Below, one piece after another: positions 289 to 46,202 of a DNA stretch of 52,505 nucleotides. This DNA is from Candidatus Omnitrophota bacterium (GTDB taxonomy: Bacteria; Omnitrophota; Gorgyraeia; M55B152): positions 1-52,505 of the forward strand of contig JAGYNU010000002.1 of NCBI GenBank assembly GCA_018399975.1, in the 5' to 3' direction. A model generated the notes under the pieces. It made no database searches, was not told the DNA's origin, and worked only from the letters and a program-made list of their open reading frames with translations. The first letter of the stretch is position 1. Every line of letters begins with the position of its first letter. A program made the translations under genes and the position numbers.

Positions 289-1326
289 TTAAAAAATCCC
301 CCGATTTTTTAAAACCCAATTTACAATTTTCTCCACACCTTCATCTACAGTTACCTCAGGCTCCCAATTAAGAATCTTTTTTAACTTATCTATATTGCTG
401 ATATAAACTTTCTGGTCACTTGGACGCCAGTCATCATAAGAAATATCGATTTTTTTACCAGTAATTTTTCCTATCTTATCTAAAAATTCCAATAAAGATG
501 CAGTATTTTCAGGACCTCCACCAATATTAAATACATGAGAACCTTTTAAATCGGATTCTATGAAACTATCAAATGCTTTAACCAAATCAGCAGCATATAA
601 AAGGTCTCTTACCTGCTTACCATCACCATATATGGTAATTGGTTTACCCAAAAGTGCAGCTATAACAAACCAAGCTACCCATCCCTGGTCTTCGAAACCA
701 TATTGATGCGTACCGTAAGTGCAACTCATACGAAAAGCTGCTGTCTTCATACCATATATATGCCCGTATTCCTGGACATAAATGTCTCCGGTAAATTTCG
801 AAGCTCCATAAGGAGTATGTCCCGTTAAATCTATACCTAAATCTTCGGGTATCCCTCTTATATTTTTATAAACATATCTTTTATCTTTTTCCTCCAGTTT
901 TATCTTATCTACATTCTCACCGTACACCTTATTAGTAGAACAGTATACAAACGCAGCATCAGGTGAAACATTTCTTACACATTCCAAAACATTTAATGTC
1001 CCATAAGCATTAATCGAAAAATCCTCTCTGGGGTCTCTTACAGAAGACGGCACTCCCGGCTGTCCTGCAGTATGAATAACCGCATCTACTCCATCCCCTA
1101 AAGCACCTAAAACATCATCTTTGTTTCTTACATCTCCTTTAATAAGCTTTATATTTTTATACTGCTTTAAATAATTCCAGTTAAACTCAACACTTTCTTT
1201 ATTGTAACCAAAAAGTTTAGACCGCATTAAGTTATCTAAAACTATAACCTCATCTCCCTTTTTAGCATAATATTCAGCAGTATGGGAACCTACCATTCCA
1301 GCTCCACCAGTAACCAATATTTTCAT
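289..1326 (-). CDS. NAD-dependent sugar epimerase/dehydratase (extended SDR)
   Basis: Rossmann motif VTGGAGMVGSH and catalytic YGASK. ATG 1326 (MKILVTGG) is preceded by GGGGAG. The track start 1341 is an upstream TTG. Confidence 0.85.
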   Translation of the reverse strand: MKILVTGGAGMVGSHTAEYYAKKGDEVIVLDNLMRSKLFGYNKESVEFNWNYLKQYKNIKLIKGDVRNKDDVLGALGDGVDAVIHTAGQPGVPSSVRDPREDFSINAYGTLNVLECVRNVSPDAAFVYCSTNKVYGENVDKIKLEEKDKRYVYKNIRGIPEDLGIDLTGHTPYGASKFTGDIYVQEYGHIYGMKTAAFRMSCTYGTHQYGFEDQGWVAWFVIAALLGKPITIYGDGKQVRDLLYAADLVKAFDSFIESDLKGSHVFNIGGGPENTASLLEFLDKIGKITGKKIDISYDDWRPSDQKVYISNIDKLKKILNWEPEVTVDEGVEKIVNWVLKNRGIF

Positions 1327-33436: not shown

Positions 33437-36400
33437 TTATTTATCATTTACTGTTTCTTTTTCTTGCTCATTATTAGAATCTTTCTGTTTTTCAATTTCT
33501 CCTATTAACGAAGAAACATCTTTCTTTACCTTAATTTCACGATTTTGCCTAAATCCTGTCCCTGCAGGAATTAAATGTCCCATTATAACATTTTCTTTAA
33601 GTCCATACAAGTTATCAGTTTTACCACTTGCAGCTGCATCCGTTAAAACTCTTGTTGTTTCCTGAAAACTAGCTGCAGATATAAAACTTTCTGTAGTCAA
33701 AGACGCTTTGGTAATTCCTAATAATAAAGGAGACGCGCTAGCCGGTTTCCCCTTATTTTCTCTAACTTTTTGATTTTCTTCTTTAAAACAAAATTTATCG
33801 ATATGTTGTCCAGGTAAAAAATCAGTATCTCCAGGGTCTTCTATCTTAACCTTTCTAAGCATTTGTTTTATAATTAACTCAATATGTTTATCATTTATTT
33901 TAACACCTTGTAATCTATAAACTTCTTGAACTTGATCTAATAAATATTTCTGCAATTCTTTTTCACCGCGTATGTTAAGGATATCATCAGGAACTATTGG
34001 ACCATCGGTTAAACGGTCCCCACTTGAAACCTTATCGCCTTTATATACATTTAAATGTTTTCCATGTGGAACCAAATACTCCTTTTTCATTCCAGAAGGC
34101 GATTGAATTATAACCCTTCTTTGCCCACGTTTAGCACTACCAAATTCCACTACACCATCGATTTCACTAATTACTGCGGGGTTTTTTGGCTTTCGGGCTT
34201 CAAACAGTTCTGCAACCCTTGGTAATCCTCCTGTAATATCTCTAGTTTTGGTAACTTTTCTAGGAGTTTTTGCCAAGATAGTCCCAGCTTTAACTTTTTG
34301 ATTTTCCTTTACTGCGATATGAGCTCCAGCTGGTAATGGATAAATAGCCACAACATTATTCTTTTTATCCAAAATTAATATCTGCGGATGGAAATCCACA
34401 GAATGTTCTATAATAACTTGTCCAGTTATACCTGTAGCCTCATCAATTTCTCTATGAGAGGTCTTACCATCAACAATATCCTCAAATTCTATCTTACCTT
34501 CTACTTCTGTTAGTATAGGAGACGAATAAGGATCCCATTCTACAAACTTATCACCTTTTTGAACTTTATCTGACTCTTTTACATTTAAAAATGCACCTTG
34601 TGGAATAACATGTCGTTCTAATTCAATGCCTTCTTCATCATTTATACTAATTTGAGAATTTCGATTAAGAACTATAAACTTTTTCTTTGAAACAGAAACT
34701 ATTCTTAATCCATGAAATACTATTTTCCCATCATGCTTAGATTCTATAAAAGATTGCTCCACAATTCTACTAGCAGTTCCTCCAATATGAAAAGTTCTCA
34801 TAGTTAACTGAGTACCAGGCTCTCCAATTGACTGAGCAGCAATTACACCTACAGCCTCTCCTGCTTCTACAAGACGACCATTTGATAAACTAGTACCATA
34901 ACATTTCGAACAAACGCCCCTTGAAGCTTCACAGGTTAGAACACTTCTAATTTTTATTTTTTCGATACCTAATTCCTGAATCCTATTTGCTTTCTTCTCT
35001 GTTATAACTTCACCCGATTTTACTATTACTTCATCTGAAACAACATCAACTATGTTATCAGCAGCAACTCTACCTACAATTCTTTCCTTTAAACTTACTA
35101 CTATTTCATCACCTTCCACGATGGCTTCTACATAAATGCCATTTAAAGTGCCGCAATCTTCCTCAGTAACAATAACATCTTGTGCAACATCGACTAAACG
35201 TCTTGTTAAATAACCTGAGTCAGCTGTTTTTAAAGCCGTATCAGCTAATCCTTTTCTACCCCCATGAGATGAAATAAAATATTCTAATGAAGTTAATCCC
35301 TCTCTAAAACTCGAAATAACAGGACTTTCTATAATTTCTCCTGAAGGTTTAGCCATTAAACCTCTCATACCTACTAATTGTCGAATTTGTTGTTTAGAAC
35401 CCCTTGCTCCTGAATCAGCCATCATAAATAAAGGATTAAATTTATCTAAATGTTTAAAAACTGAATCGGAAACCTGTTCTGTAACATGAGTCCATATATC
35501 TACTATTTTATTATAACGCTCCCCTGCCGTTATTATCCCTTGCTCGTAAGATTTCTCAACTTCGCCAACTTTTTTATAAGCTTCCGTTACAAGTTCTTCT
35601 TTATCTTCTGGAATAACTAAATCACTAATAGACAAAGAAGCTCCTGAATAAGTAGCTTCTTTAAAACCTTTTTCTTTAACTTTATCCAATAATTTAACAA
35701 CCGCATCATATCCAAATTCTTCATAACAGTTTTTTATTACATCAGATAAAGCTGATTTATTTAACAATTTGTTAACAAAATTCATTTCTTTAGGCAAAAT
35801 ATCATTAAAAAGTACTTTACCAACAGTTGTTTCAATTAATTCAGAATTTATTCTTACTTTTATACTTGCATGCATATGTACTGCTCCATCTTCATATGCA
35901 GAAATGACTTCAGCAGTGTTAGAAAACATTTTACCTTCGCCTTTAACACCTTTTCTCATCTTCGTAAGATAATACAAACCAAGCACTATATCCTGCGTTG
36001 GAGAAACAATCGGACCTCCATGAGCAGGAGAAAATATGTTGTTACTGGATAACATCATTAATCTGGCTTCCATTTTAGCTTCAGCAGATAAAGGAACATG
36101 TACAGCCATTTGGTCACCATCAAAATCTGCATTAAAAGGCGTGCAAACCAATGGATGCACTTTTATAGCTTTACCTTCTACTAAAATAGGCTGAAATGCT
36201 TGTATTCCTAATCTATGTAAAGTAGGTGCACGATTCAATAATACTGGATGCCCCTTAATAACCTCATCTAATATATCCCATACTTCTACTTCTGTACGTT
36301 CTACCATTTTCCGAGCGCTTTTAATAGTATGGACATGCCCTCTCTTCTTTAATTCCTTTATAATAAAAGGCTCAAATAATTCTAAAGCAATTCTTTTTGG

Positions 36401-39400
36401 CAAACCACATTGATGCAATTGCAATTCCGGCCCAATGACTATAACGCTCCTACCAGAATAATCTACTCTTTTACCTAATAGATTTTGTCTAAATCTACCT
36501 TGTTTACCTTTAAGCATTTCACTTAAAGATTTTAGAGGCCTATTACCTGCCCCCATAACGGGACGGCCATGTCTTCCATTATCAAACAAAGCATCAACAG
36601 CTTCCTGTAACATCCTTTTTTCATTTCTAATTATTATCTCAGGAGCATTAAGTTCCATTAATTTCTTTAGGCGGTTATTTCTATTAATCACTCTTCTATA
36701 CAAATCATTTAAATCACTAGTAGCAAATCTCCCTCCATCTAAAGGAACTAAAGGCCTTAAATCCGGAGGGATAACAGGAATAACGTCCATAACCATCCAA
36801 GATGGTTCATTCCCTGACTTTTTAAAAGATTCTACAATTCTTAATCTTTTCAATACTTTTTTTCTAACTTGTTTACCACGTTTTCTCTTAGCTTTACTAT
36901 GCAAATCAGTTGCTAATTCATTTAAATCTAAATTCCCCAACAATTCTCTTATAGCTTCTGCTCCCATTTTAGCAGTAAAGCTTTTACTATATTTAGCCTT
37001 TGCCTCTCTATATTTGTTTTCTGATAATAAATCTCCTGTTTTAAAAGGACTATCTCCCGGGTCTATTACACAATACTCCTCGTAATAAATAACCCGTTCT
37101 AATTGTCTCATACTCATGCCTAATAAAGCTCCCATTCTAGAAGGCATAGTCTTAAAAAACCATATATGAGAAACAGGAGAAGCAAGTTCTATATGCCCCA
37201 TCCTTTTCCTTCTGACATCAGATGTGGTAACTTCAACCCCGCATCTGTCGCATATTATCCCTTTATTTTTTATTCTCTTATATTTTCCACAATAACATTC
37301 CCAGTCTTTGGTAGGACCAAAAATCCTTTCGCAAAATAAGCCTCCTTTTTCTGTTTTTAATGTTCTATAATTAATAGTTTCTGGTTTTGTTACTTCACCA
37401 TGAGACCAAGATCGAATCACATCAGAAGAAGCTATATTTATACGTATAGAATTAAAATCACCATCTTTTGATATAGAATCTTTGTCAAAATCTTGCTCTG
37501 TACGAATATCTAAAGCCAAACCCATAAGTTCTTTAATCAATACATTAAAAGATTCAGGTGTCCCTGTTTGCAAAGAACAATCGCCTTTTACAATATTCTC
37601 GTATATACGAGTGCGTCCTTTAACATCATCACTCTTAACTGTCAATAACTCCTGTAACATATAAGCAGCACCATAAGCTTCAAGTGCCCATACCTCCATT
37701 TCCCCGAATCTCTGCCCTCCGTATTGAGCTCTACCTCCTAAAGGCTGCTGTGTAACCAAAGAATAAGGGCCAATAGAACGAGCATGAATCTTTTCATCAG
37801 CTAAATGTATTAACTTCAATACATACATATAACCAACGGTTATTTTCTGGTCAAAAGGCTGTCCTGTTAAACCATCATAAAGTATAATTCTTCCATCTTC
37901 TGGCAACCCAGCCTTTCTTAACAATTCTTTTATTTCTTCTTCATTAATACCTCCAAAAACAGGCGTAGCTACATATTTATTTAATATCTCAGCTGCCCAT
38001 CCTAAATGAGTTTCTAAAACCTGTCCTATATTCATACGCGAAGGAACCCCTAACGGATTTAAAACCATATCAACTGGAGTTCCATCTGGTAAAAATGGCA
38101 TATCTTCTTCAGGCAATATTCTGGCAACAACCCCCTTATTGCCATGTCTACCAGCCATTTTATCTCCCACAGACAGCTTTCGTTTACTTGCTATATAAAC
38201 AACCACCCGTTTTATAACCCCTGGTGGTAATTCATCTGCTTTTTTCACCTTATCTATTTGTCTTTCTTGTTCATAAGTCAAATCATCTATTTGATCATTA
38301 AATAATCTTAAAACTTTCTCGATTTCTTCATTTATATCATCATTTTTTAATTCAATTTCATCTACATCACAATTGACTAATTTTTTAATATCAGTTTTAG
38401 TTATTTTCTTTCCCTTTTCAATAATAGGCTTACCTGTATTAATATCAAGTAAATCAGCAGCTAATGTATGGCCTTCTATTATTTCCCCTACTCTACTAAT
38501 TTTCCCCTTTAAAATATCATCAATTTTACCTTGATATTCTTCTTCAATTTCTTTTATACGAGCTCTTTCTTTAGACCTTTGAGATTTAGTGCGAGCAGGC
38601 TCCTTTCTGGAAAAAACTTTTGTATCTATAACGATACCTTCTACACCAGAAGGAACTTTTAAAGAAGCATCGCGTATATCTCCAGCTTTTTCGCCAAAAA
38701 TAGCTCTTAACAATTTTTCTTCTGGAGTAAGTTCTGTCTCCACCTTAGGAGTAATTTTCCCTACCAAAACATCTCCTGACTCTACTTTAGCTCCTACCCT
38801 AATAATCCCATCTTCATGTAAATCTTTTAAAGCTTCTTCTCCTACATTAGGAATATCTCTAGTAATCTCCTCTGCCCCTAATCTAGTATCTCTAGCTTCA
38901 ATCTCAAATTCTTCAATATGAACAGAAGTATAAACATCATCTTTAACTAACCGTGAACTAACTAAAATAGCATCTTCAAAATTATGTCCATGCCAAGACA
39001 TAAAAGCTACTAAAACATTTTTACCTAAAGCAATTTCTCCTTCTTTTGTAGCAGGTCCATCTGCTAATATATCTCCTTTTTTTACCTTAGCCCCAATAGA
39101 TGTCACTGACCTTTGATTAATACAAGTATTGGCATTAGAACGTTTAAATTTTTTTAGTTTATAATCTGTAGAACCAACTGTTATAGTACTACCATCTATA
39201 TAATTTACATTACCAGAATTTTTAGCTATAATTAAAGCTCCTGAATCTCTTCCAACTTTTTCCTCCATGCCGGTTCCAACCAATGGTGGTTCAGGAAATA
39301 ATAACGGAACAGCTTGACGTTGCATATTAGCTCCCATAAGAGCACGGTTTGTATCATCATGTTCTAAAAAAGGAATCAAACTGGCATCAACGCTAACAAT

Positions 39401-41194
39401 CTGTCTGGGAGAAACATCTATATAATCTATTTCTTTAGGAGATACACTAATAACATCCTGTTTATACCTACATTTTACTTGTTTATCCAAAAATTTTCCC
39501 TTATTATCTAACCTTGCATTGGCTTGAGCTATAATTTTGTTATCTTCTATATCAGCAGTTAAATACTCAACCTTTTTTGTAACTATACCTTTTTCAACCT
39601 TTCTATAAGGAGATTCCAAAAAACCCAATCTGTTAACTTTAGAAAATGTAGTTAAAGTTGTAATTAAACCAATATTAGGGCCTTCTGGAGTTTCAATAGG
39701 ACAAATCCTTCCATAATGCGAATGGTGAACATCACGGACTTCAAAACCAGCTCTTTCTCGGCTTAACCCCCCTGGGCCTAATGCACTAAGTCTACGTTTA
39801 TGTGTAGTCTCAGCTAAAGGATTAGTCTGATCCATAAATTGTGACAATCTACCTCTACCAAAAAAATCTCTAATTACCGATGATACTAACTTTGTATTAA
39901 CCAAGTTTTGAGGCATCATAGTCTCAGTATCATATATATTCATTCTCTCCCTAGCAGAACGAGCTACTCTCGCTAAACCTACCTGTATTTGATTAGCTAA
40001 AAGTTCGCCAACTGTCCTTATTCTCCTATTACCTAAATGGTCAATATCATCTACTTCTCCCTCTCCTCTTCTTAAATTCAAAAGATATTTTACAGCTTCA
40101 ATTATTACTTTTTTATCTAATTCTCTTTTATCATCAGAAAAATTTGTATTAAATTTTCGATTAATAATAAACCATCCAACTTTGCTCATATCATACCTTT
40201 TGGAGTCAAAAAACATTCTATTTAACAAAGATTTGGCATTTTCTTCAGTAGGAGGGTCTCCTGGGCGAAGCTTTCTATACAATGCCAACAAGGCTTCTGT
40301 TTGATTTTTGGTATTATCTTTCTCAAAGGAATTTCTAATTTCAACAAAATCATTACTAACTAATTTTATTTGCTTAACTTTTACATTTTTTAACTTGTTT
40401 CTAATCAACTTATTGGTAATTTTAGTTAATGCCGGAACAACTATCTTCTCCTTCTTTTCACCATTTTTATCCTCTAATATTGTTTCTTTAATAGGTTCTG
40501 CAAGCACTTTATCTAAATATTTTTTCCATTGTGAACTCCTCTTTATACTTACATTTTCTATTCCGCATATCTCTTTTAAAATATCTTGATCAGTCGAATA
40601 CCCAAGAGCACGCAAAAATGTAGTAAAAACAAATTTACGCCTTCTATCAATATAAACATTTAATCTATTTGATTTATCAAATTCAAATTCTATCCATCCG
40701 CCTCTATAAGGTATAATACGAGCAGAAAATATACTTTTCCCTCTAATTCTAGTTGTTTCACCAAATGACACTCCAGGAGATCTATGTAATTGATTAACAA
40801 CGACTCTATCATCGCCATTTATAATAAAATTACCTTCTTCGGTCATTAATGGCAAATCTCCAAAATAAACTTCTTGTTCTTTAATTTCTTTATCAGAACG
40901 TAATCTTATTTTTGCTTTTAAAGCACCTGCATAAGAAAAACTTCTTTCCCTAGCTTCTTCTTCACTATATTTAGACCTATCTATAGTGTAACTAATAAAT
41001 TCTAAAATATATTTACCATCAAAACTCTCTATGGGAAAAATATATTCAAAAATAGCCTGTAAACTTTTATTTTCCCTTTTCGTTTTAGGAACATCAAACT
41101 GTAAAAAATCCTCATATGACTCCACCTGAGTTGCAACTAAATTTGGCAAGCTAAAAACTTCTTTTGTTTTACCAAAATTTAGTCTTGTAATCAT
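33437..41194 (-). CDS. rpoBC: Fused DNA-directed RNA polymerase beta-beta' subunit (2585 aa)
   Basis: One uninterrupted 7758-nt ORF. Residues 1 to ~1234 carry beta motifs ([27 protein letters not shown]). Residues from ~1247 carry beta' motifs (zinc [14 protein letters not shown], catalytic [12 protein letters not shown]). The linker [12 protein letters not shown] is encoded at ~37455-37495. AAGGAGAGG SD precedes ATG 41194. Confidence 0.9.
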
Positions 41195-41210
41195 AATTAA
41201 TCCTCTCCTT

Positions 41211-41511
41211 TAATGAGACCATGATTTACACGACTATAAGGAGTGTAAATCATATGGTCGAATTAAATCCGCCAATGTTTGTGGCGGATATAGCCCACTA
41301 ATGAACACATGATTTAGAGAGTTCAAGCGAATCTAAATCATATGTGTGAATTGAATCCGCCGTAGCTTTAGCGTAGGCGGAAGTTCATAATTTACGGAAA
41401 TCCTGTCCGCCAATGTTTGTGACGAAAGCATATAACTTAGCGAATCCTTCGATTTTACTCAGGATAAACAAAGTGAAGCTAAGTTATATGACCGAATTTT
41501 ACCCGCCAAAG
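41211..41511. repeat. Four tandem leader hairpin modules (two full, one truncated, one long-loop) in the rplL-rpoBC spacer
   Basis: Module positions are 41211-41288, 41299-41381, 41385-41428 and 41429-41511. Each has a bulged hairpin with its own stem sequence plus a CCGCC-loop-GGCGG hairpin. Confidence 0.8.
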
Positions 41512-41712
41512 CTAAGCACGAAAAAAAGTAGATTAGCGTAGGCGAAAAACACTGAACCCTTTTAGGGTGAAGTGTCAAAAGATATATAAAACCAAAGATA
41601 CTTCGCTTTCCAAGCTCAGTATCCCTACCCGCCAATGTTTATGGCTGGAATCCCCACGTTTAGATTTCAAAAAAAAACTGTGTTTCTATGTTCTATGTCT
41701 GTTTTCTGTTTA

Positions 41713-41812
41713 CCCCATAGCATCCGAAGGATTGGTATAGGGTTATCTGCCATGAACCAGAGCAAAGCACGGTTCATGGTAACCCTAAACCGTACTACGT
41801 TCTGGTTTAGGG
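41713..41812. repeat. Cluster of three GC-rich hairpin modules
   Basis: 41713-41742 is a two-level hairpin, paralog 28311-28340. 41750-41779 is CCATGAACC/GGTTCATGG, paralog ~50192-50229. 41783-41812 is CCCTAAACC-GTACTACGTTCT-GGTTTAGGG, paralog 50229-50264. Confidence 0.8.
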
Positions 41813-41839
41813 CTGTTTTCTGTCTTCTGTTTACTTCGT

Positions 41840-42056
41840 AAACCACAGATTATCACAGATTTCTAAAACCACACAAGATTAGCACAGAAATTGAAACCTG
41901 CAGCCTGAAGTTTGCAGCATGTAGCTTGAAGCTTGCAGCTTGTTTCTTTTCGTCATTCGGATTTCGTCATTTGTCATTTGTTTTCTTTCTGTTTTCTGCC
42001 TGCCCCGTGAAATCTTATTTCTACGGGGTTATCTGTCTTCTGTCTTCTGAATAAAC
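41840..42056. repeat. Partial core, TGCAGC-type heptamers, TCGTCAT words, hairpin CCCCGT-N14-ACGGGG (42003-42028) and TCTGTCT units abutting the rplL stop
   Basis: Direct reading. The hairpin recurs as its exact reverse complement at 49998-50023. Confidence 0.85.
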
Positions 42057-42728
42057 TTACTTTAATTCTACTTTAGCACCTACGCTTTCAAGTTTAGATT
42101 TAACTTCTTCTGCTTCTTCTTTAGAAACTTGTTCTTTAATTGGTTTTGGTACAGATTCTACTAAATCTTTAGCTTCTTTAAGTCCTAAAGTAGTTATAGT
42201 TCTTATTTCTTTTATGACCTGAATCTTTTGCGAGCCCACCTCAGATAAAATTACATCAAAAATATCTTTTTCTTCTTCTTTTTCTGATTCAGCAACTCCT
42301 GTAGCACTTCCAGCGGCTGCCGGAGCTACTGCTGGGATAGCACTAACACCAAACTTTTTTTCTAATACTTTAACTAAATTGGAAAGTTCTATAACATTCA
42401 TTTTTTCAATAGAATTAACAATTTTTTCCATGTTTTCAGACATATCTATGTTTTCTTCTTCTACTTCTTGTTGAGTGTCATCTTTTTTCTCTTTTTCTGT
42501 GGTTTCAGCTTTTTTATCTTTTTTGGTATCAGATTCTTTTTTATCTGATTCTTTAATATTCTTATCCTCTTCTTTCTTACCTTTATCATCGATAGAGGAA
42601 TCTTTATCTTGTTTTTCGGTAGATTTCTTTGTTTTATCTGACACTTTTTCCTCTTTTTTCTTTTTTAGTTCTTTATCTTCGTTTTCTTTTGCTTTTTGCA
42701 CTTGTTTTGTTTCTTTTTCTTCAGCCAT
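42057..42728 (-). CDS. rplL: 50S ribosomal protein L7/L12 with ~95-aa Lys/Glu/Asp-rich N-terminal extension (223 aa)
   Basis: A canonical L12 sequence occupies the last ~128 aa ([29 protein letters not shown] ... [10 protein letters not shown] ... GAKVELK). A perfect AAAGGAGG SD precedes ATG 42728. No SD precedes the internal ATG 42443. Confidence 0.9.
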
Positions 42729-45223: not shown

Positions 45224-45261
45224 TAAAAAAGCCCCGTTATTTCACCTAAATTAAAGTGGAA

Positions 45262-45447
45262 TTATTTCAGCAAAAGGCCTATAAGCCTTGAAAAAAACAA
45301 ATCCACTAACCCTATATATACCGCCATTACAACTACAGTTACAATCACAACGATAGTTGAACCTACTAACTCATTTTTATTAGGCCAAGAAACTTTTTTA
45401 AGTTCTGCCTTAGTTTGCACCAAAAAAGTTTTAATTTTTGAAATCAT
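45262..45447 (-). CDS. secE: Preprotein translocase subunit SecE
   Basis: 61 aa. Contains ELKKVSWPNKNEL followed by a single TM. It sits upstream of nusG. Confidence 0.9.
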   Translation of the reverse strand: MISKIKTFLVQTKAELKKVSWPNKNELVGSTIVVIVTVVVMAVYIGLVDLFFSRLIGLLLK

Positions 45448-45466
45448 GACTATTTATATCTGACAG

Positions 45467-45541
45467 CAGGTGAGGCAGGACTTGAACCCGCAACCGTCGG
45501 ATTTGGAATCCGATGCTCTAGCCAAATTGAGCTACTCACCT
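45467..45541 (-). tRNA. trnW: tRNA-Trp (anticodon CCA)
   Basis: The reverse complement folds as a cloverleaf: acceptor AGGTGAG/CTCACCT, anticodon arm TCGGA-TTCCAAA-TCCGA, T-loop GGTTCAAGTCC. No encoded 3' CCA. Canonical position before secE. Confidence 0.9.
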
Positions 45542-45543
45542 TT

Positions 45544-45597
45544 TAATGAGTACATCATTTAGCAAATCTAAATAAAGCTAAATGATATGCACGAATT
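45544..45597. repeat. Leader hairpin module abutting the 5' end of tRNA-Trp
   Basis: TAATGAG, then stem GTACATCATTTAGC / GCTAAATGAT(AT)GCAC, then GAATT. It lacks the CCGCC hairpin. Confidence 0.75.
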
Positions 45598-45642
45598 TTA
45601 CTCACTACCTAATTTTCTTGATTTTTAGACAATTAAAAATAA

Positions 45643-45830
45643 AACCCCACGGGGCAAGCCCTGTGGTACCTTTATGTACCCGTCTTCGCCAAACACTTAT
45701 TGTGTTTGGCTTCGCCGAGGTTATCCGCCAACACATTTAGGTAGCTCTTTCATTTGGTAACATCTCGCCGAAGCATAACTTTCGCATTCATCCATGGGTA
45801 AACCCGTGGTTTTCTGCGAAGGCAGATAAA
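45643..45830. repeat. Multi-hairpin interspersed element, copy C (188 bp, internal 35-bp deletion)
   Basis: Collinear with copies A and B, but lacks the segment between the two CACGGGGCAAGCCC direct repeats. Confidence 0.9.
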
Positions 45831-45894
45831 ATTAGGTGCTAAGTTAATTAAACTAAAGACTTAAGTTTCTCACCATACTACCTAAATATAAGTT

Positions 45895-46050
45895 TTATTT
45901 AACTTTATCTTCCTTGTGTAATGTATGGCGTTTACAAAATTTACAATATTTCTTCAATTCAAGTTTACCTTTAGAAGTTGTTTTGTTTTTAGAAGAAAAA
46001 TAATTTCTGTTTTTACATTCTGTACATCTAAAACTGATTGCTATTCTCAT
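45895..46050 (-). CDS. rpmG: 50S ribosomal protein L33 (51 aa, zinc type)
   Basis: Hand translation gives [51 protein letters not shown]. It is too short for the ORF track. Canonical position between tuf and secE. Confidence 0.9.
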
Positions 46051-46074
46051 TTTATTAATATAAAACACTTTGAA

Positions 46075-46105
46075 AATGACCCGCTATTTAACTTAGCGGG
46101 TCATT
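46075..46105 (-). terminator. Candidate attenuator/terminator hairpin between tuf and rpmG
   Basis: Perfect 11-bp stem AATGACCCGCT / AGCGGGTCATT with a 9-nt loop. On the minus strand it is followed by TTCAAAGTGTTTTATATT. It lies 24 nt upstream of the rpmG start. Confidence 0.35.
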
Positions 46106-46159
46106 CTTAATCTACTATTACTAAATTAAAATTAAATTTTTTTAAATTATGTGGAATAG

Positions 46160-46202
46160 AACCCCACGGGTAAACCCGTGGTTTTCTGCGAAGGCGGATA
46201 AA
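46160..46202. repeat. Multi-hairpin interspersed element, mini copy D (43 bp)
   Basis: The left end AACCCCACGGG is joined directly to the right end TAAACCCGTGGTTTTCTGCGAAGGCGGATAAA. It abuts the tuf stop codon (46203) with zero spacing. Confidence 0.85.

Follow-up and report, generated by a model that had tools for sequence, protein, structure and literature searches.

A fused rpoB-rpoC gene in an Omnitrophota genome, shared with two related species

The rpoBC gene and its neighbourhood

The genes for the two large subunits of RNA polymerase, beta and beta', form a single reading frame in the DNA studied here, a 52,505-nt stretch from a Candidatus Omnitrophota bacterium that we call the window (Table 1). 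It is contig 22 of a metagenome-assembled genome (MAG) of 1.18 Mb, in 109 contigs and 89% complete. The genes stand in the order tuf, nusG, rplK, rplA, rplJ, rplL, rpoBC, rpsL, rpsG, fusA, rpsJ, which is the usual context.

Table 1. Features of the fused gene; positions are those of the window and residues those of the rpoBC chain
Feature	Position	Strand	Basis or remark
Fused rpoBC gene	33437..41194	-	Single 2585-codon ORF plus stop, ATG start
Beta (RpoB) module, residues 1-1234	37493..41194	-	Pfam Rpb2 domains
Beta active-site motifs, intact	Residues 611-630 and 1010-1021	-	Motif location
Acidic polar linker, 12 residues, residues 1235-1246	37457..37492	-	In-frame junction DNA
Out-of-frame ATG (37462-37464) and four-T run (37454-37457)	37454..37465	-	Junction DNA
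Beta' (RpoC) module, residues 1247-2585, plus stop codon	33437..37456	-	Pfam Rpb1 domains 1-5
Beta' N-terminal zinc-site cysteine cluster, intact	37238-37297	-	Motif location
Catalytic NADFDGD box, intact	Residues 1688-1694; 36113-36133	-	Motif location
Second beta' zinc-site cysteine cluster, intact	35138-35155 and 34901-34933	-	Motif location

No internal stop codon was found anywhere in the 2585-residue translation, which contains both subunits whole. The Pfam set for beta is complete (Rpb2_1, 2, 3, 45, 6 and 7, residues 18-1233), and the set for beta', complete as well (Rpb1_1 to 5, residues 1246-2500), follows it in the same chain. Each half also gives a full-length match to its own TIGR family: TIGR02013 (rpoB) scores 1745 bits against a cut-off of 801 over residues 3-1231, and TIGR02386 (rpoC) 1840 bits against 963.5 over residues 1249-2552. 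A preliminary description of the locus had reported that neither a stop nor a frame change separates the two modules, on which ORF, translation and junction DNA agree, and that catalytic and zinc motifs are intact in both halves, all of which were located in the translation. Its description of the ORF proved accurate throughout.

Several features of the neighbourhood are recorded here in their own right. The rplL ORF (42057-42728, reverse strand) encodes 223 residues, with L7/L12 domains only from residue 101; about 95 lysine- and glutamate-rich residues of low complexity precede these domains, and 24 nt separate the rplJ stop from the start of the long ORF. It could have a real charged N-terminal extension, or the upstream part could be an open frame with the true start at an internal methionine. 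The gap between rplL and rpoBC (41195-42056) is 860 bp of non-coding DNA, unusually long for this operon, and holds a 21-bp tandem repeat at 41902-41943. The gap between nusG and tuf (45224-46202, about 980 bp) contains no ORF of 80 aa or more; secE, rpmG and tRNA genes usually lie between these two genes.

The junction and its product

Beta ends at residue 1234 (window position 37493), and the conserved N-terminal strand of beta' runs from residue 1247. The linker between them had been placed, correctly, at about 37455-37495, with beta ending near residue 1234. In relatives, the place of the linker is taken by the beta stop, a spacer and the beta' start. The 12 linker codons include no in-frame ATG, GTG or TTG and no stop, which leaves beta' without a separate start. 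The locus has the architecture of a natural beta-beta' fusion: a single ORF that runs from one module into the other without a stop or a frameshift and has only one start.

In solved polymerases the C-terminus of beta and the N-terminus of beta' already adjoin. When the window protein is mapped to PDB structures, about 8 of its residues are without a counterpart in the separate subunits. These have about 13 residues in total at this place, namely the final 2 residues of beta in 7ye1 together with residues 1-11 of E. coli beta'. The linker is not longer than the native termini that it replaces. A sequence search found no naturally fused beta-beta' chain among the best 60 PDB matches. AlphaFold2 gave a poor model of an excised 501-residue junction fragment (mean pLDDT 56.5, pTM 0.40), with the linker at low confidence.

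Translation would yield, in one ribosome pass from one start codon, a beta-beta' chain of about 290 kDa, predicted to fold into the normal two-lobed RNA polymerase core with the 12-residue linker as a flexible polar bridge between the C-terminus of beta and the N-terminus of beta'. That this single chain would also be the functional form in the cell we infer from what has been published on E. coli and H. pylori. A synthetic E. coli rpoB-rpoC fusion is described as functional (Severinov et al., as cited in 10.1101/2021.11.05.467461); going by that citation, the C-terminus of beta is tethered to the N-terminus of beta' as in the window protein and the tether is compatible with an active enzyme, although the E. 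coli fusion was engineered and that of the window is natural. The most likely consequence for the organism would be obligatory 1:1 synthesis of beta and beta' and their tethered, intramolecular assembly.

A fused gene could still supply separate subunits, either by proteolysis in the linker or by internal initiation at an in-frame GTG that lies 13 codons after it. Cleavage would suit a linker that is exposed, polar and little conserved and that was modelled at low confidence, but nothing points to a cleavage site; initiation at the GTG would delete the conserved N-terminal strand of beta', and no ribosome-binding motif precedes that codon. The fused chain is moreover functional in H. pylori, according to the statements of PMC7483510 and PMC1557499 that cite Zakharova et al. 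We consider separate subunits in the cell very improbable.

The change to a single chain is probably near neutral rather than a source of new function. Raudonikiene et al. are said to have obtained, in 1999, viable H. pylori with artificially separated subunits, and this suggests that tethering is close to neutral.

Conservation in relatives and origin of the fusion

The junction region was searched against 5.8 billion proteins, which returned two metagenome proteins, P0002 (2579 aa) and P0003 (2580 aa), whose full-length identities to the window protein are 80% and 79%, respectively. Conservation was read from the protein sequences: both are fused at the window's junction site, and the fusion is common to diverged relatives. 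Their linkers have 14 residues, two more than the window's, and most positions differ; the three linkers can nonetheless be aligned, and the last few residues before beta' are common to all. The P0002 linker contains a methionine where the beta' start would be. The exact sequences of P0002 and P0003 occur on 5 and 11 contigs, respectively, in JGI data, the longest being 192 kb and 104 kb.

Judged from sequence, it is these relatives that settle the junction question, since the window assembly alone would be compatible with a one-base error. One extra T in the four-T run of Table 1 would end rpoB at a TAA three codons on, and would also put the out-of-frame ATG in frame with beta'; the result would be two ordinary genes that overlap. 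Two real genes might thus have been joined in the assembly, by a one-base deletion in the T run or by a miscalled stop, in a MAG that is fragmented into more than a hundred pieces. We rate such an artefact as very improbable. No Shine-Dalgarno-like sequence precedes the out-of-frame ATG. The 20 other conserved window genes that were examined all have their full length; indel errors are therefore infrequent in this assembly. Two further species have the same fused frame, each on several contigs, and the artefact is rejected because three species with a difference at one residue in five could not credibly have come to show the same frame error. The ATG and the T run are judged to be a coincidence or a relic, as the frame of P0002 and P0003 stays fused across this stretch.

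The preliminary description had proposed a survey of related genomes for the same junction and a phylogeny of the two halves against Helicobacter-type fusions. A 301-residue junction-spanning query was run against 40 close relatives and 400 genomes sampled across the phylum. Among the 40 close relatives and about 400 sampled Omnitrophota genomes no other true fusion was found; only the window genome is free of stops at the junction. Fusions had seemed to be present in G001, G012 and some 15 further genomes, but 19 such loci, once translated, held one to six stops each between the two genes, and this lead was dropped. An automated open-frame length (about 2600 aa) reads through stops and is, alone, no basis for calling a fusion. 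Of these unfused relatives, G001 alone shares the order of the window genome, and its rpoB-rpoC spacer holds six in-frame stops.

Trees were built from the 300 residues that flank the junction on either side, with FastTree (253 rows) and with IQ-TREE under LG+C20 (71 rows). In the IQ-TREE tree the window protein, P0002 and P0003 form a clade with support 99, and unfused G001 is sister to this clade with support 98; FastTree agrees on both points. It follows that the fusion is younger than the separation from the lineage of G001. NCBI-labelled Candidatus Omnitrophica proteins fall in the window's class-level group in the trees, in agreement with an Omnitrophota origin of the window. In both trees, which were confined to the junction flanks, Helicobacter lies with the outgroup rows and not in the Omnitrophota group.

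By this reading, the fusion would have arisen in the common ancestor of the window genome and of the two related uncultured Omnitrophota species to which P0002 and P0003 belong. The simplest route would be loss of the rpoB stop and of the short spacer, followed by decay of an rpoC start codon that had become useless. Since then the fusion has persisted, and identity over the remaining protein has fallen to about 80%.

Natural rpoBC fusions have been reported in Helicobacteraceae and Wolbachia (PMC7483510, PMC6403173, PMC1557499). The literature searched names fusions only for these two groups, and no fused rpoBC in Omnitrophota or Patescibacteria was found in it. Both known types have curated equivalogs, and the window protein reaches roughly half to three-fifths of their cut-offs: 2823.6 bits against 5372 for NF007172 (PRK09603, Helicobacter-type) and 2763.7 bits against 4632 for NF011417 (PRK14844, Wolbachia-type). 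It therefore belongs to neither curated fused family. Like the RpoBC of Helicobacter and Wolinella, it is encoded by one ORF, beta then beta', is joined between the C-terminal clamp segment of beta and the N-terminal strand of beta', and lies in the context rplKAJL-rpoBC-rpsL-rpsG-fusA. Unlike them, it belongs to another phylum and another position in the tree, and its chain is about 300 residues shorter (2585 versus 2890); its 12-residue linker is also unrelated in sequence to that of Helicobacter muridarum, which has about 27 residues. With the fused RpoBC of Wolbachia it shares a single beta-beta' chain in a small genome, but no phylogenetic affinity.

Common ancestry with the fused genes of Helicobacter/Wolinella or Wolbachia, or transfer from them, would account for the same domain order and the same place of the junction, but has next to no chance of being right, given that the window protein nests inside unfused Omnitrophota with an unfused sister, scores far below both cut-offs and differs in linker length and sequence. 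The earlier proposal of a fusion independent of the epsilonproteobacterial one holds on the same three counts.

What was observed of the ORF, its conservation and its phylogenetic position we explain, with high confidence in the explanation as a whole, by a genuine, heritable single-chain fusion that would be ancestral to its clade and independent in origin, would assemble as a tethered polymerase and would probably be near neutral; in this explanation the route of origin is inferred.

Recurrence of the fusion and its meaning

Fused proteins are more widespread than the two known families. Nearly all of the best 120 database matches carry both the beta and the beta' domain sets. The fused matches are labelled Omnitrophica, Ratteibacteria, NPL-UPA2, Caldiserica, Puniceicoccales and Paceibacterota, and some JGI names read 'subunit beta-beta''. 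The preliminary description had called natural fusions well known in a few lineages and otherwise rare; the first part stands, and the second is weakened by the fused proteins of many uncultured lineages among these matches. These proteins have the same architecture as the window's, and some fall in its class, but their origins are separate and their linkers range from 13 to over 60 residues.

Two other true rpoBC fusions were seen on a metagenome contig (L088, Ga0209542_10015374) and in a Ca. Paceibacterota MAG (L163, DATJQA010000074.1). Their linkers, of about 19 residues, are alike and are unrelated to the window's.

Within the Omnitrophota class, the fused proteins sampled make up at least six separate groups, every one of them embedded in unfused genomes (IQ-TREE). 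On the 71-row tree the fusion trait requires 8 changes, and on the 253-row tree 24. When the 11 fused Omnitrophota rows are constrained to be a single group, the log-likelihood falls by 487 units and the constraint is rejected (AU p 7.6e-96); the constrained group was defined by the fusion trait and named after the tree was seen. The fusion had also been suggested as a possible lineage marker. It serves as one for a narrow clade, being present in the window genome, P0002 and P0003 and absent from G001; as a deep marker it is useless, because the trait arose repeatedly within the class.

In at least 38 of about 400 sampled Omnitrophota genomes (loci L002-L010 and L178-L206 among them), rpoB and rpoC share a frame and are separated by a single stop codon. 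Such counts are lower bounds: the top-ranked loci were inspected, and junction-spanning queries rank in-frame loci first. With the same frame and one stop, a single substitution, in the stop codon, can fuse the two genes, and about one relative in ten of those sampled stands at this distance from fusion.

These results point to a broader possibility, for and against which we see about equal weight: that the fusion is recurrent, one mutation away, and has been fixed repeatedly in small-genome uncultured bacteria (Omnitrophota, Patescibacteria, NPL-UPA2 and others). If this were true, a systematic census would give dozens of independent natural experiments, from which one could ask whether tethering is neutral or favoured as genomes and cells shrink, and each fusion would be a clean family-level marker.

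The type of fusion is already known from Helicobacter and Wolbachia, and the window provides a genuine but modest repeat of it, with no new mechanism. It adds a documented independent beta-beta' fusion, conserved across a clade, in the phylum Omnitrophota. For annotators, the rpoBC ORF is one that should not be split or flagged as a frameshift, and phylogenomic pipelines in which RpoB and RpoC serve as two separate markers must handle the fused gene. The most useful by-product is the evidence for recurrent fusion reachable by one mutation in Omnitrophota: the one-substitution distance found in so many of the sampled relatives shows why the fusion recurs.
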